Origin: an uncultured delta proteobacterium
Lineage (GTDB): Bacteria > Desulfobacterota > Syntrophorhabdia > Syntrophorhabdales > WCHB1-27
Direction: 5' to 3'
Assembly: GCA_963835595.1 (NCBI GenBank)
Contig: CAWIGL010000002.1
Location: 2,534,459 to 2,598,458 of the forward strand
DNA: 64,000 bases
The notes beneath the pieces are model-generated. The model did no database searches, was not told where the DNA came from, and was given only the letters and a program-made list of their open reading frames with translations. A program made the position numbers and the translations under genes. Below, one piece after another: positions 21,093 to 35,755 of this stretch (position 1 is its first letter; each line of letters begins with the position of its first letter).

Positions 21093-21300
21093 CGTGTCGT
21101 CCTGGGCCGCACGGCCCTGGGACCTAAGGCCCAGATCGGCGCCGGGCCTCAAGCGATGTACGGCTACCTGCGCCACCGGAGCTCGGTCCTCAACCTCGCG
21201 GCCCCGAGTATCCTGGCCATGCTTCCCGCGCCGAAGCAGGCTCCGGACCACGCCACCCCTTCAAGGAATAGCCGGCGGAATGACCGGAGCTTGCCCTTCA
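21093..21300 (+). repeat. Roughly 200-bp inverted duplicate of the 3' end of the femAB-like gene at 35545-35755 (about 88% nt identity); non-functional gene fragment
   Basis: Plus-strand 21093-21262 matches the reverse complement of 35585-35755 nearly base-for-base (GRVVLGRTALGPKAQIGAGPQAMYGYLRHRSSVLNLAAPSILAMLPAPKQAPD), and weakly ~40 nt past the stop; starts right after the 21090 stop. Confidence 0.7.
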
Positions 21301-21343
21301 CGACTGGCCTTTGCTCACTGAAAGCCCTACCTGGCGGGCAGAT

Positions 21344-21366
21344 CGCGCGGTCCGCGCTTTTTTTTG
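21344..21366 (+). terminator. Rho-independent terminator GCGCGG-T-CCGCGC followed by T9
   Basis: GC stem then TTTTTTTTT, downstream of the 18772-21090 gene and the duplicated fragment. Confidence 0.5.
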
Positions 21367-21585
21367 TCGATCATGGTATAATGAATACGTTCCGCTGGTG
21401 GCTATCACCAATCAACCCACGTTTAACCGCTTCTGCGTATTCCTGAAAAGCCATCCGAGGCTCGGGGTGCCGTGTCAGTAAACCCCCAACAAAAGAAAGG
21501 CACCGTTAAAGGCTGCGAACGGCCATCTCGCAAATTGGTCGTCGATACGACACCAAACAATGGACGCGGGCAAGGAGTGCCAAAT

Positions 21586-21882
21586 ATGGACAACAGTACA
21601 AGTGCGAAAACCTTCAATGGCCAATTTCCCCCGAGAAGGACATTCTTGCGTGCGAAAGAAAAGCCGCTCCGCACGAAGAATTACCTCGACTTCTTGGTTC
21701 ACTATGATGCGGAGCTTGTGCAGATCGATGGGCCGATAATGGTCGTCAGATGCAAAACCGGCGCCGAATTGCCGTTAGAGCAAAAAGGCAAACTGCAAAT
21801 GGTGAAGGCCCTACTTGATGAATTTGCAACGGTCGATGGGACCAACAAAGCGATAATAGACTACAAATTCTCACACTCTTGA
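21586..21882 (+). CDS. Low-GC hypothetical protein (98 aa) with AAGGAG RBS and an extended -10 (TGGTATAAT at 21377-21385)
   Basis: MDNSTSAKTFNGQFPPRRTFLRAKEKPLRTKNYLDFLVHYDAELVQIDGPIMVVRC...; surrounding DNA is visibly lower GC than the rest. Confidence 0.45.
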   Translation: MDNSTSAKTFNGQFPPRRTFLRAKEKPLRTKNYLDFLVHYDAELVQIDGPIMVVRCKTGAELPLEQKGKLQMVKALLDEFATVDGTNKAIIDYKFSHS

Positions 21883-22001
21883 GTTTTTGCTCAGATCAGA
21901 GTCGACTAGTTTTGACTGAGCACGAGCGAAGGGTACGCATTGGACAGAAGCGATATGGGCAGGGAACTCGATGAATTTATCAAGAACCTGATTCGTGAAG
22001 G

Positions 22002-25000
22002 ATGAACCGGAACCTCTTCCCTTTAAGGGCCATTTTTCACAGAAGCGCGCTCACGAAAAAGGGCGCCGGCGAGGATGCGCCGCTGCGGTCTGACCTTTTC
22101 AGCGCTTCTCAGATGGAACAACACGGCAGGACCCTTGCGGCCCTGCACGCCGTGGGCGAGGATCATGCCCCGGAGAGGTTGTTGGCAAGGCTTGCTGCAA
22201 ACGAAGCCGTCCTTCTTGAAGTCCGCGACATAGTGGCTGAGGCCGTGAAGGCAAGCCGCAGGATTACCCCGGCCGGAGAATGGCTGCTCGACAACTTCTA
22301 TCTTATCGAAGAACAAATCAGGACGGCGAAAAGGCTGCTGCCGAAGGGGTACGCCAAGGGGCTGCCCCGCCTCAAAGACGGCCCGTCCAAGGGTCTTCCC
22401 CGCGTATATGATGTCGCCCTTGAGACGATTTCCCACGGCGATGGCCGGGTGGACCCGGAGGGCCTCGAAAGCTTCGTCGCCGCCTATCAGACGGTTACCA
22501 CGTTGCGGTTGGGCGAGCTATGGGCGATTCCCATCATGCTGCGTCTGGCATTGATCGAGAACCTCAGAAGGGTTGCAACGCGGATCGCCACCGACAGGAT
22601 CGACCGGAACTTCGCCGATTACTGGGCCGATAAAATAACGGAGACGGCAGAAACTGACCCGAAGAGTTTGATCCTGACAGTTGCCGACATGGCCAGGTCA
22701 AACCCGCCGATGGTCAGTTCCTTTGTTGCGGAGTTTACCCGTCGCCTCCAGGGACACGGCGCCCCACTTGCGCTCCCCCTTACCTGGATCGAGCAGCAGC
22801 TTTCCGGGTCGTACCTGACCATAGAACAGATGGTGCAATCGGAAAACCAGCAACAGGCGGCCGACCAGCTTTCCATGAGCAACAGCATCGGAAGCCTGCG
22901 CTTCCTTTCCGCCATGGACTGGCGCGAATTCGTCGAACGGATGAGCACCGTCGAGCGGACCCTGCGGGAGGACCCTGCCGGAGCCTATGGCAAAATGGCT
23001 TTTACCACCCGTGATCGCTACCGTCATGTCGTGGAGGAGATAACAAAGAAGAGCGGACTCGCCGAAGACGAGGTGGCCCGTCTCGCGATCGGTCTCGCCG
23101 GGGAAGCTGCAAACGGAACAAACGGCGATAACCGGGCGAGACACGTGGGTTACTACCTCATCGATGGGGGACTGCCAAAGCTCGAAGCCCGCGTCCGGGT
23201 CAGGTCGTCCGTCACCGACATGATTCGAAACATGGGTCGGAGATTTTCCCTGCCGGTCTATCTTGGCTCGATCCTCTCACTGGTGCTTATTTTCGCCGCA
23301 GGCATGGTCGCAGAGACCGCATCCAGCGGCATACGCGGCTCTCTGTTGTGGATCGTCGGCGTGCTCTCGCTCTTCTCGGTAAGCTCACTCGCGATAGCAC
23401 TGGTCAACCTTTTCACGACGCGTCTTGTCACACCCCATCCTCTGCCGCGAATGGACTTCTCCAAGGGGATTCCTCCCGAATCGTCTACCCTGGTCGTGGT
23501 CCCGACCATGCTGACGAGCCCTGAGAATATCGGCCATCTCGCCGACGCCCTGGAAGTCCGGTTTCTGGCAAACCGGGACGATAACCTCCGCTTTGGCCTG
23601 CTTACCGACTTCCGGGACGCCCCCGAGGAAGAGCCGACCGGGGACGAAGCACTCCTGCTACTGGCCCGGCAAAGCATAGAAGCGTTGAATGACAAATACA
23701 ATGGCCCGGCCGGCGATCTCTTTTTCCTGTTTCACCGCTCCCGTCAATGGAACCGGCAGGAACAAGCCTGGATGGGCTACGAGAGGAAGCGGGGGAAGCT
23801 CGCGGAACTGAATGCGCTTCTGCGCGGAGGAGCAGGCGCCGGATTCTCTCTCGTAGTCGGCAATACCAAAGACCTGTCGAACGTCAGATACGTCATCACC
23901 CTCGACACGGACACGGAGCTTCCGCGCGATTCCGCGCGGCAGCTCGCGGGGGCAATGGCCCATCCCCTCAATCTTCCCCTCTACGATGCGGATAAAGGGC
24001 GCATCGTGGCCGGATACGGCATTCTTCAGCCACGGGTGGCGATAAGCCTGACCGGCACCGACCGGTCGCGCTATGCCCGCATGTGGGGGAGCGATGCCGG
24101 CATCGATCCCTACACCCGTGTGGTCTCCGATGTCTACCAGGACCTCTTCGGCGAAGGCTCGTTCATCGGCAAGGGCATCTACGACGTTGACGCCTTCGAG
24201 CGGGTGCTCAAAGGACGTTTACCCGAGAACCTTATTCTGAGCCATGACCTCATCGAAGGGTGTTACGTGCGCTCGGGACTCATCAGCGACGTGCAGTTGT
24301 TTGAGGAGTACCCGTCACGGTACGGCGCGGACGTAAGCCGCCGCCGCCGCTGGATTCGGGGCGATTGGCAGGTTCTCAGGTGGCTCTTCCCCGGCGTTCC
24401 CGGCCTCAATGCCCGCTTCCGGAAGAACCCGCTCACCCCGTTGTCGCGCTGGAAGATACTCGACAACCTTCGGCGCAGTCTCGTGTCGCCGGCATTGACG
24501 CTTCTCGCGCTGGCCGGTTGGTGTGCGCTGCCGTCCCCCTGGTTCTGGGCTGCATCGATCATTGCTATCGTGCTGATCCCTTCCCTGATTGGCTCCCTCG
24601 TGGAGATCCTGAAAAAGCCTGACGACGTGCTCATGGGCCAACACCTCGCCGGTGCGGTCCGGTCCGCCGGCAGAAGCGTCACCCAGGCGATCTTCGTGCT
24701 CCTCTGCCTGCCTCATGAGGCATTCTTCGGCGGGGCCGCGATTCTGCACACCCTGTGGCAGATGCTGGTTTCAGGCAGGGGTCTTTTGGAATGGAACCCT
24801 TCAGGGGAAGCGGAGCGGGCGAGCCGGACGGATCTTGCCGGGTCCTGGCTGGCCATGTGGATCGCGCCGGTCATCGCCGCTGCGACGGCGGGGTATCTCC
24901 TGCATGCACGGCCTGTCGCACTGACCGCGGCTCTGCCGATCTTAAGCCTGTGGTTTATCTCTCCGGTTATCGCCTGGTGGATCAGTAAGCCCCTCCGTCC

Positions 25001-34833: not shown

Positions 34834-34851
34834 GTTATCTCCTTTCTACTC

Positions 34852-35142
34852 TTAGTCTTCGATGATAGCGAGAATGTCATCCTCCCTCAGGATCAGGTGG
34901 TCCTCGCCGTCAATCTTGATATCCGTGCCCGAGTATTTGCCGAAGAGGATCTTATCGCCCACCTTTACTTCGGGGGTCACTCTATGTCCCTTCTCGGTCA
35001 TCTTGCCGGCCCCGACGGCAACCACGCGCCCTTCCTGGGGTTTCTCTTTGGCCGCATCGGGAATGATGATCCCACCCTTTGTCTTCTCCTCCTCTTCGAG
35101 CCTCTTGATGATGATTCTGTCCTGTAATGGTGTGAACTTCAT
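34852..35142 (-). CDS. groES: Co-chaperonin GroES (96 aa)
   Basis: [38 protein letters not shown]...; 18 nt upstream of groEL; AGGAAAGGAG RBS. Confidence 0.95.
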
Positions 35143-35164
35143 TGTTTCACGCTCCTTTCCTCAC

Positions 35165-35230
35165 TTTGAGGAATCTGACTATAATGCCGTGGTTGCATGT
35201 CGCGCGAGATCTGCCCGCGCCGTCTGTCAA
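35165..35230 (-). promoter_or_regulatory. Conserved ~65-nt leader element shared with the flotillin-like gene (copy 2, upstream of groES); no CIRCE/HrcA operator
   Basis: Minus-strand TTGACAGACGGCGCGGGCAGATCTCGCGCGACATGCAACCACGGCATTATAGTCAGATTCCTCAAA; see copy 1. Confidence 0.35.
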
Positions 35231-35544
35231 TCTCTCTATTCACACGTTCTTTCCGGAGCCGCTCCTGCCTGAAACGCCTGCGGCTAATCCTCACCGAAGC
35301 CTCGTCAAATAGCGCGCTTTCCATCCTGCGGCCCTCACCGGTCCGCTTTTGTCTTTCCGCCCCGCCCCACAAACGGTCCATTCACGGTGATACGCCTTAG
35401 ATATTGATAATAAAAGGGGGCTTGAGATACAAGGAGGCAAACCGTGACTATCGGCCCAACTATTCCATTATCTGTATCTAGTATAAACCTTATTATTGCG
35501 GTGCGCAACAAGGGGGTAGGCCGATGGTCGATGGCGGCTGAAGG

Positions 35545-35755
35545 CTCGGATTGCCGCATTGGCAAGGCCGGCCCCGCCGGCTATGCCTTAAAGGGATGGC
35601 GGTCGGGGGCCTGTTTTGGCGCGGGAAGCACCGCCAGGATGCTGGGGACCGCCAGGTTAAGGACCGAGCTGCGGTGGCGCAGGTAATCGTACATCGGTTG
35701 AGGCCTGGCGCCGATCTGGGCCTTCGGTCCGAGGGCTGTGCGGCCCAGGACGACG
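35545..35755 (-). repeat. Source copy of the ~200-bp inverted duplication (3' end of the femAB-like gene plus ~40 nt downstream)
   Basis: Reverse complement matches 21093-21300 at ~88% identity. Confidence 0.7.

Follow-up and report, generated by a model that had tools for sequence, protein, structure and literature searches.

Sequences repeated in opposite orientation around a DNA segment are found in several types of systems. In Hin/Gin/Fim-type switches, also called invertons, the segment is bracketed by short, identical or nearly identical inverted repeats, at which the recombinase acts, and the system includes an invertase or a tyrosine or serine recombinase gene. For Drosophila inversions, an isochromatid/staggered-break model has been described (Ranz et al. 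2007, PMC1885836); in that account, inverted copies stand at both ends of the inversion, each retains one ancestral flank, and outgroups are single-copy. Pseudogene stumps at junctions of illegitimate recombination or horizontal gene transfer are recognized by partial homology without a start codon and by disabling lesions combined with relaxed constraint. The window analyzed here (the whole 64-kb stretch of DNA) contains an inverted repeat, with arms designated copy A and copy B, that resembles each of these systems in some respects. At a probability of roughly 0.6, we interpret the region as a scar left by mosaic rearrangement, together with gene exchange, at a hot spot of shuffling, and not as an invertible segment. 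It would be an ordinary trace of past rearrangement and not a working DNA switch.

The repeat pairs 21092-21278 on the plus strand with 35758-35574 on the minus strand. The blastn comparison of the window with itself, proposed as a check in the initial annotation, recovers it with an E value of 2.8e-58, at 86.6% identity over 187 aligned columns that include one 2-nt indel. The reported inverted duplication is therefore real, although its size and identity had been given as about 200 bp and about 88%. The similarity had also been described as extending about 40 nt beyond the fem stop codon; it stops 7-9 nt past the TAG, at 35573/35572, and the repeat is thus essentially coding sequence. The argument for DNA duplication built on that extension was a misreading, but its conclusion, true homology at the DNA level as opposed to convergence, is supported. 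In the self-comparison of the 64-kb window, no other long inverted repeat was found except a 51-nt palindrome at 16407-16457.

Copy B (35574..35758, minus strand) consists of the last 58 codons, plus 7 nt, of an intact 461-aa FemAB-like/GNAT (Acetyltransf_6) gene at 35581..36966 on the minus strand, referred to below as fem; this assignment agrees with the earlier one. The protein, a putative acyltransferase, exceeds the gathering scores of PF13480 (39.9 bits, cut-off 22) and PF04339 (31.5 bits, cut-off 27), matches none of the NCBIfam models, and has 138 homologues, the closest being 89% identical. Compared with its relatives, the gene shows a dN/dS of about 0.15-0.18. Its conserved 5' flank (about -110 nt; 36967..37080, minus strand) is homologous to those of L001, L004-L006, L009, and L019 up to about 37060-37076. 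On the other side, the 3' flank is lost just past the stop codon, and fem then abuts the groES leader.

Copy A (21092..21278, plus strand) is the 3' stump of a second fem-like gene, covering codons 403-461 and 7 nt (the last 58 codons). As observed earlier, it lies directly behind the stop codon of the gene then called cyclase-like, starting 1-2 nt past the TAG at 21088-21090. In tblastn searches it matches only fem residues 403-455, at 21090-21248, and no fem homology is detected upstream of 21090; the start codon and the N-terminal domains are absent. Near 21249-21250, copy A has acquired a frameshift through a private 2-nt insertion; it also carries three private replacements, at residues that the 45 closest homologues keep invariant or change only conservatively. 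Relative to the nearest allele, that of L019, dN/dS is 0.46, a value derived from small counts (4 synonymous and 5 non-synonymous differences), versus 0.05-0.18 in functional pairs. Copy A thus combines the partial homology without a start codon and the disabling lesions with relaxed constraint that mark a gene remnant, and it is a dead stump.

Behind the stump, 21279..21317 (plus strand) preserves the native fem 3' flank that copy B is missing. This segment is homologous to the fem 3' flank of L001, L003-L005, L009, L010, L012, and L019-L022; the fem 3' flanks of all relatives match the copy A flank, while their match to copy B halts at 35573. It is followed by the terminator noted previously, a terminator-like hairpin with a T8 run at 21345..21365 (plus strand), which originally served fem and now probably ends the transcript of the upstream TPR-containing gene. 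The latter (18913..21090, plus strand, 725 aa, start codon checked) is intact, as homologues of 724-738 aa align with it as far as its C-terminal end. Support for the cyclase-like label is weak: Pfam gives only sub-threshold TPR hits, and class 3 adenylate cyclase appears only in the JGI name of an 80%-identical homologue. Copy A has replaced the native 3' flank of this gene; L015 and L017 carry a different, mutually homologous 3' flank at this position.

The region from 21091 to 37085 is a 16.0-kb mosaic block. It runs from the TPR gene to the 75-nt region downstream of tRNA-Arg(CCT), with the fem 5' flank as its right edge. Its anatomy and its four junctions can be read directly from the alignments: two modules, each headed by a fem allele, lie tail to tail. 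The plus-strand module, comprising fem(A), the terminator, a 98-aa ORF, and a GH94 cyclic-glucan-synthase-like (cgs-like) gene, is decaying, because the last of these carries frameshifts, one of them in both assemblies. The 98-aa ORF (21586..21882, plus strand) occupies an equivalent position, with equivalent length, in L021 and L022, is 83% identical at the amino acid level in L001, and differs from L020 by a dS of 0.13; the exact protein also occurs on ENA contig_75917. It is the low-GC ORFan of the initial annotation: a small ORF of lower GC content is indeed present behind copy A, but it is conserved in relatives and not an orphan.

The cgs-like gene (22002..30624, plus strand; PF10091, PF06165, PF17167) encodes 2875-2885 aa in relatives and is collinear with L002 and L020-L022 at 89-92% nucleotide identity. 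At least four frame changes between 29012 and 30019 (about 29012-29020, 29552-29610, 29839-29841, and 30011-30019) bear out its earlier designation as a pseudogene. The +1 frameshift at about 29018 is common to a second assembly; the gene also contains assembly-specific indels and two alleles. A 335-aa ORF on the opposite strand (29575..30582, minus) is a shadow ORF within it.

The minus-strand module is intact and consists of fem(B), the groES leader, groES-groEL, and a flotillin gene. The leader, a long conserved promoter region (35143..35573, minus strand, "P"), is homologous to the sequence upstream of groES in L010, L009, and L020 and upstream of flotillin in L019. At the derived junction with copy B, the fem stop codon is followed by 7-9 nt of fem flank, about 20 unmatched nt, and then region P. 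The groES (34852-35142, Cpn10) and groEL (33187-34833, Cpn60) genes, both on the minus strand, are together 86-88% identical at the nucleotide level to those of L009, L010, L011, and L019. The last gene of the module encodes a 673-aa flotillin/SPFH protein (30990..33011, minus strand; PF01145; start codon checked) and is 90.9% identical to L019 at the nucleotide level. The two convergent modules meet in a 178-nt junction (30711..30888) without a match in relatives, as homology to L020 stops at 30710 and homology to L019, at the flotillin terminator, starts at 30888.

Comparison with relatives places the repeat in a region of extensive reshuffling. L001, L002, L012, and L020-L023 share a collinear fem-flank-ORF-cgs order, and among 11 relatives homology covers no more than fem with its flanks from -110 to +45. 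These relatives arrange fem, cgs, groESL, and flotillin in at least three different ways, and the proposed synteny check identifies every junction around the repeat as a breakpoint. The region is a shuffling hot spot, and the past rearrangement suspected earlier is supported. Each of 12 related genomes scanned yielded one fem locus, with no second copy, and no fragment of the gene within +/-10 kb.

The observed gene order is genuine. Over 11585-46965, ENA contig_75917 (loci L013 and L026) runs collinear with the window and in the same orientation, with zero mismatches across copy A and 100% identity over copy B. The left junction, between the TPR gene and copy A, is additionally crossed at 100% identity by an independent short-read Logan contig (L014). 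It is consequently most improbable that the repeat was created during long-read metagenome assembly, by a chimeric join or a fold-back, even though the source is a MAG contig whose cgs gene has assembly-specific indels and two alleles. Furthermore, a fold-back gives identical arms, and not arms of 87% identity with a synonymous bias.

The shared geometry suggests a comparison with invertons, and the initial annotation had considered an invertible segment. Such a segment, toggling at 21.3-35.5 kb as a phase-variation-like switch or recA flip-flop, would account for the bracketing by inverted repeats; on geometry only, a flip would swap the module behind the intact fem, and relatives show both orientations of groESL relative to fem. 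However, the arms are 187 bp long, coding, and 13% diverged, their longest common exact run is 18 nt, and repeated recombination would homogenise them. With this divergence and so short an identical run, the repeat would not readily recombine. Short conserved recombinase sites are absent. The genes called within about 10 kb of either side include no recombinase, integrase, or transposase; the Pfam-annotated gene calls from 11.6 to 47 kb and the homologous left flank lack an invertase, integrase, or transposase as well, nor did a comparison of the ORFs inside the block with Pfam and NCBIfam reveal one. One arm is a frameshifted stump, the 14-kb segment holds housekeeping and decaying genes, and a single orientation occurs in two independent assemblies. 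In a JGI scan the flipped junction was absent, as was the native junction used as a positive control. An active switch is very unlikely, and the repeat appears to have no present function.

The divergence of the arms provides information on their origin. Copies A and B differ by 15 synonymous and 5 non-synonymous changes, with a dS of 0.47 and a dN/dS of 0.10 (dN/dS values are from 52 codons). Their identity (86.6-86.8%) is lower than the mean among relatives (90.2%), and 11 changes on the B lineage are absent from A. In a neighbor-joining phylogeny from about 174 nt, copy A groups with L019 at 89% bootstrap support, and A with B in 0 of 500 replicates. With a dS of 0.10, A is much nearer to the single-copy L019 gene than to B (0.47), and B does not stand out among the orthologues; consequently, the A-B split falls inside the species radiation. 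Purifying selection acted during most of the divergence of the two copies, and the extent of this divergence is typical of separate species within this Syntrophorhabdales clade. The hypothesis that copy A arose by duplication in situ and evolved neutrally from the outset is rejected (P about 0.0015 and 2e-7), with at most 10 changes on the A lineage versus 36.6 expected had it been dead since duplication. Simple duplication of the resident gene end, proposed earlier, therefore does not hold. The arms are not a recent duplicate pair; they probably represent 3' ends from two distinct alleles of a single gene family.

These values also bear on an inversion in situ with staggered breaks, or a replication-based inverted duplication, at a single ancestral locus. 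In this scenario, the ancestor had the order tRNA-Arg - fem - ORF - cgs -> <- flot - groEL - groES - P | TPR, the inversion extended from fem codon 403 to the groES leader, and both ends received a copy of the 187 nt lying between the staggered nicks. As in the Drosophila inversions of the cited account, there are inverted copies at both ends, each with one ancestral flank, and the outgroups are single-copy: in the full gene the 5' flank is preserved but the 3' flank breaks off 7-9 nt past the stop codon, whereas the fragment preserves the 3' flank. Reversal restores the order fem, ORF, cgs found in L001, L002, and L020 and makes groESL convergent with fem, as in L011. However, the scenario requires copies that were identical at birth, with A non-coding ever since, and copies A and B were never demonstrably identical. 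Both the substitution pattern and the tree, in which the two are not sisters, contradict a single origin followed by neutral decay. A rescue by allele replacement would need a crossover within the first ~20 or last ~10 nt of the repeat, because A and B already differ at position 4 of the repeat and continue to do so until 2 nt before the stop codon. This explanation is accordingly considered unlikely.

Two old paralogues represent a similarly doubtful alternative. Here, one functional fem would have stood before ORF-cgs and another before groESL, and a recent deletion would have truncated one of them and brought it up against the TPR gene, with no exchange between lineages. This history would account equally well for divergence under purifying selection and a subsequent, recent decay of copy A, and both contexts, fem before cgs and fem before groES, exist among relatives. 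In contrast, the single fem locus in each of the 12 related genomes, the lack of fragments nearby, and the much greater closeness of A to L019 than to B speak against it.

In the preferred reading, a mosaic rearrangement with gene exchange, one module, or at least its fem allele, would have entered the lineage by recombination with a related lineage, L019 being the closest sampled allele to copy A. A later deletion or illegitimate join to the TPR gene may then have produced the stump, roughly 0.03 substitutions per site ago, with fem(A) losing codons 1-402 at an illegitimate junction exactly past the TPR stop codon. The stump resembles pseudogene remnants at such junctions in its 3'-only homology, missing start codon, private frameshift, and replacements at conserved residues, in its position exactly at a synteny breakpoint, and in the decay of cgs, its neighbor in the same module. 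Unlike these, it lies inverted at 14.3 kb from an intact homologue, so that it mimics a terminal inverted repeat, and the two are alleles of species-level divergence and not a duplicate pair.

A separate observation concerns the topology of the locus. It is exactly the one that a single staggered-break inversion of one fem-headed locus predicts, with copy B keeping the 5' part and copy A the 3' flank, and it runs counter to the preferred explanation; the fit is read as coincidental.

The position of the block beside a tRNA gene also recalls tRNA-associated genomic islands. The tRNA-Arg(CCT) gene (37161-37235, minus strand), correctly placed just past the segment in the initial annotation, forms with its 75-nt downstream region the feature at 37086..37235 (minus strand). 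An island integrated at the tRNA was rejected as a candidate: 75 nt separate the tRNA 3' end from the start of the block, the window contains no second copy of the tRNA-Arg 3' region and thus no tRNA-end direct repeat, no integrase is called, and the content (groESL, flotillin, fem, cgs) differs from mobile-element genes. A composite transposon was likewise rejected, since the arms are parts of a GNAT/FemAB-like gene and not insertion sequences, and the edges of the block show no direct repeat. The likeness to such islands is that the block is absent from the same place in a relative. In L015 and L016, the TPR stop codon is followed by 120 nt and then by a homologue of 37086-37203 (in L015 at 10567-10684, 92% identity), and the 16-kb block is therefore absent there. 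L015, the closest relative of the left flank, carries two tRNA 3' fragments, and the tRNA-Arg site is clearly disturbed in that genome.

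A self-blastn search of the window recovers the inverted repeat between copy A and copy B that the initial annotation had reported (E 2.8e-58). Positions 21092-21278 of the plus strand pair with 35758-35574 of the minus strand, an extent on which a MAFFT alignment, a repeat finder and self-blastn are concordant. The two arms are 86.6% identical over 187 columns, with one 2-nt indel. The similarity had also been said to continue for about 40 nt past the stop codon, which is wrong: the arms diverge at 35573/35572, and after the TAG they have only CCGGCGG(G) in common. Copy B is formed by the final 58 codons of the 461-aa fem gene (35581..36966, minus strand), whose FemAB-like/GNAT protein matches PF13480 (Acetyltransf_6) and PF04339 (FemAB_like), both above threshold. 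Copy A starts 1-2 nt after the stop codon (TAG, 21088-21090) of the TPR gene (18913..21090, 725 aa), which is intact, given that its homologues terminate at the same residue. The only other self-matches found in the window by self-blastn are one paralogous gene pair and one 51-nt palindrome. The paralogous genes (54-2723 and 7098-9908, about 900 aa each) lie in direct orientation, 7.2 kb apart, and match between 254-2605 and 7442-9787 at 64% nucleotide identity. The palindrome (16407-16457; 51-55 nt, near-perfect) is located between the NiFe hydrogenase large-subunit and acetyl-CoA hydrolase genes and is also kept in a relative (L015, 5925-5979).

The repeat reflects a second fem-like gene with a separate evolutionary history, whose stump lies at the border of a mosaic block of 16 kb. 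When the fem protein is compared with the window by tblastn, residues 403-455 match 21090-21248 at 88.7% identity, and no fem homology is found 5' of copy A in any frame; copy A is consequently a 3' remnant. The A/B differences were polarised using relatives. In an alignment with 13 of them, the 2-nt insertion is found in copy A alone, where it throws the final codons out of frame. Apart from this indel, the private changes of copy A comprise three non-synonymous and two synonymous substitutions, and 9 of the 11 derived changes of copy B are synonymous. The three replacements (K/R to G, V to A and V to M) have no parallel in the 45 closest homologues. Because of the private insertion and replacements, copy A is non-functional and decaying, though only slightly (about 3% private change). 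A 210-aa ORF (20814..21446) that contains copy A in frame overlaps the TPR gene, has no family match and was rejected as open by chance. Readthrough of the TPR stop codon into copy A was also ruled out by direct reading of the sequence, the fem frame being offset from the TPR frame. No fem-fragment repeat was found at 17 loci of relatives, searched over 10 kb on either side, and the inverted repeat seems to be particular to the source population.

The arms had been read as a duplicate pair, a view that the substitution pattern does not bear out. Comparison of A with B over 52 codons in frame gives 15 synonymous and 5 non-synonymous differences (dS 0.47, dN 0.046, dN/dS 0.10). For fem genes from different species of the clade, dS is no higher (0.32-0.43), and over this stretch the relatives are on average more alike (mean pairwise identity 90.2%) than A and B (86.8%). 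In a neighbour-joining tree with 500 bootstraps, copy A and the fem gene of L019 are sisters in 89% of replicates, while copies A and B are sisters in none; copy A differs from the L019 gene by a dS of 0.10, with dN/dS 0.46. Had copy A arisen in situ as an already dead duplicate, non-synonymous changes should make up about 60% of the total, against an observed 5 of 20 (P = 0.0015), and about 37 changes would be expected on the A lineage, where at most 10 are observed (P = 2e-7). From the substitution pattern and the tree, the parent of copy A was probably a functional fem gene, separate from B over about 90% of their divergence, and its truncation would be comparatively recent. Since the relatives are single-copy for fem, exchange between related lineages would be more parsimonious than a long-lived paralogue pair.

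The same substitutions bear on the explanation ranked second, in which an inversion with staggered breaks created the inverted duplicates. The model, described in PMC1885836, predicts an inverted duplicate at either end with one ancestral flank retained by each, and this is exactly the observed topology. However, it is contradicted by the A/B substitution evidence, which is why it is placed second. A later allele replacement could rescue it only with crossovers inside the outermost 10-20 nt of the repeat, because the A-B differences span from repeat base 4 to 2 nt before the stop codon. The repeat is probably a scar of rearrangement and inter-lineage recombination, and appears to be neither an invertible element nor a fresh duplication. 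This kind of feature is already known, and the repeat is another instance of it.

The initial annotation had also suggested an invertible segment. The repeat does not look like such a switch: the arms match exactly over at most 18 nt in a row, there is no recombinase, integrase or transposase among the gene calls, in 11.6-47 kb or in the homologous left flank, and a second assembly from this population (ENA ERZ25039519 contig_75917; L013, L026) is collinear with window positions 11585-46965, so that one orientation is seen in two assemblies. Nor is the arrangement an assembly artefact, as the second assembly has no mismatch in either arm and a short-read Logan contig spans the TPR/copy A junction at 100% identity. 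Because these two sources agree, the arrangement is real; judged from two assemblies, its orientation also appears fixed. The second assembly was extended through a look-up of the 98-aa ORF protein; the acetyl-CoA hydrolase protein gave only short Logan contigs. Scans of JGI metagenomes matched neither the flipped nor the native junction and are uninformative, the population being absent from that collection.

The genomic context of fem was compared across relatives. A scan of species-representative genomes gave one fem locus, with about 88% nucleotide identity, in each of 12 related MAGs that carry the label Syntrophorhabdales or 'uncultured delta proteobacterium', and L018-L023 were added through look-ups of homologous proteins. 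In L001, L002, L012 and L020-L023, a single fem gene precedes the same 3' flank, the 98-aa ORF and a cgs-like GH94 gene of 2875-2885 aa, a stretch collinear with the copy A side of the window at 81-92% nucleotide identity. The fem 3' flank of every relative matches that of copy A up to about 21303-21317 or beyond; their match to copy B ends at 35573. Because of these flanks, copy A stands in the widespread fem, ORF, cgs context, and the place where copy B meets the groES leader is peculiar to the source genome. The adjacency of fem, groES and groEL as such is also present in L019, L009 and L010.

The nearest relatives of the left flank are L015 and L016 (89-92% nucleotide identity over the hydrogenase, acetyl-CoA hydrolase and TPR genes). 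In both, 120 nt separate the TPR stop codon from a 118-nt stretch 92% identical to window positions 37086-37203, a region just downstream of tRNA-Arg and running into it; the whole of 21091-37085 is therefore missing there. On the left, the native 3' flank of the TPR gene, common to L015 and L017, is replaced from the first base after the stop codon. On the right, the block edge and the limit of the conserved fem 5' flank (about 37076), known from four other contexts, lie within 10 nt of each other. The block edges are free of target duplications, tRNA-fragment repeats and microhomology above 1 nt; the window has no direct repeat of the tRNA-Arg 3' part that would mark a tRNA island, base composition reveals no compositional island, and tRNA is the only RNA family in 20-38 kb. 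Within the block, module I (plus strand) consists of the fem stump, a terminator (21345-21365), the 98-aa ORF and cgs, and is decaying. Module II (minus strand) consists of the intact fem gene, the groES leader, groES, groEL and flotillin. The modules converge on 178 nt of unmatched DNA (30711-30888). The dS to the nearest relatives, which differ by gene, is 0.10-0.25 for copy A, the 98-aa ORF, cgs and flotillin, the first three lying at 0.10-0.23, and 0.32-0.57 for the intact fem gene and groEL; this contrast, which has no genome-wide baseline, is suggestive but not decisive as to which module is native. Two tandem tRNA-Arg 3'-half fragments followed by AT-rich DNA occur in L015 (10488-10522 and 10634-10684) and likewise in L016, with no intact tRNA within 10 kb, which suggests past use of the tRNA-Arg site by integrative elements. 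In L007, the 3' 32 nt of a tRNA-Ser (15214-15306) recur 4.6 kb downstream (19891-19922, 97% identity), the layout of a small integrated element.

At least four changes of frame between 29012 and 30019 set the cgs-like gene apart from intact relatives of 2875 aa. A +1 frameshift at about 29018, which creates a TAG, is common to both independent assemblies; the others are private to one assembly, and some may be consensus errors. Antisense to the 3' part of the gene, and wholly contained in it, runs a 335-aa ORF without family match (29575-30582, minus strand); it is almost certainly a shadow ORF rather than a gene. About 300 substitutions (3.5-3.8%) distinguish the two assemblies, all within the cgs ORF (22034-30625); some 26 kb of its flanks are about 99.95% identical. 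Because the differences fall mostly at codon position 3 (65%) and are mostly synonymous (177 against 91 non-synonymous), they would represent two real alleles rather than sequencing errors. The pattern suggests either that an allele the size of the gene was replaced between strains or that a second copy went unresolved, and it supports frequent allele exchange at the locus.

Among 11 relatives (loci L001-L012), pairwise nucleotide homology is restricted to fem, from about -110 to about +45, even where the paired fem genes are 93-94% identical. Gene order also varies: fem, ORF, cgs and groESL in L002 and L020; flotillin, fem and groESL in L019; fem, three glycan genes and groESL in L010; and fem facing a convergent groEL in L011, so that groESL is found in both orientations. 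This fem-only homology and the differing arrangements mark the fem/cgs/groESL/flotillin neighbourhood as a shuffling hot spot. It holds another rearrangement scar: in L010/L018 (16706-16795), 90 nt left over from the 5' end of flotillin lie between groES and the conserved leader and are 80% identical to window positions 33016-33105. The fem 5' boundary falls at the identical base (directly after …GATGGnAAAGAG) in four different contexts, and the ends of the conserved unit, inspected by eye, show neither terminal inverted repeats nor any other motif. Together with the homology restricted to fem in eleven relatives, the two groESL orientations and two ORF-confined cgs alleles 3.8% apart in otherwise near-identical strains, this shared boundary prompts a further reading, which is improbable: fem with its flanks (about -110 to +45/55) might be a preferred breakpoint or exchange unit in the Syntrophorhabdales clade, behind which ORF-cgs, groESL and flotillin are repeatedly re-hung and whole alleles are swapped between co-occurring species. 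The inverted stump would then be a by-product of recurrent, possibly targeted shuffling and not a one-off accident.

The case is chiefly a warning that long inverted repeats around genes need not be switches or fresh duplications: one of them may be the dead stump of a gene, foreign or ancient in origin. Synonymous and non-synonymous counts, together with relatives, quickly decide between these readings. The neighbourhood beside tRNA-Arg, as a hot spot of rearrangement and allele exchange in uncultured Syntrophorhabdales, bears on any use of synteny or groESL context in MAGs of this order. The sole evident functional consequence of the repeat would be that it provides the TPR gene with a substitute terminator. 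The terminator sequence that follows copy A (21335-21350, GGCGGGCAGATCGCGCGG) resembles a palindrome of the groES promoter, GCGGGCAGATCTCGCGCG, with 11 + 5 matching nucleotides, which may be chance.

Upstream of groES lies a conserved leader/promoter region (35143-35552, minus strand) that has no Rfam match and is also present in L009, L010, L019 and L020. Its core is CTTGTTGC-N15-TTATA, followed by about 100 conserved nt, and L019 carries a second copy upstream of flotillin. Nearer to groES, a TTGACA/-10-like promoter is arranged around the palindrome GCGGGCAGATCTCGCGCG (about 35219-35201). A similar combination of promoter and palindrome occurs upstream of flotillin (about 33094-33045), and the palindrome may be a candidate operator for a heat-shock repressor.
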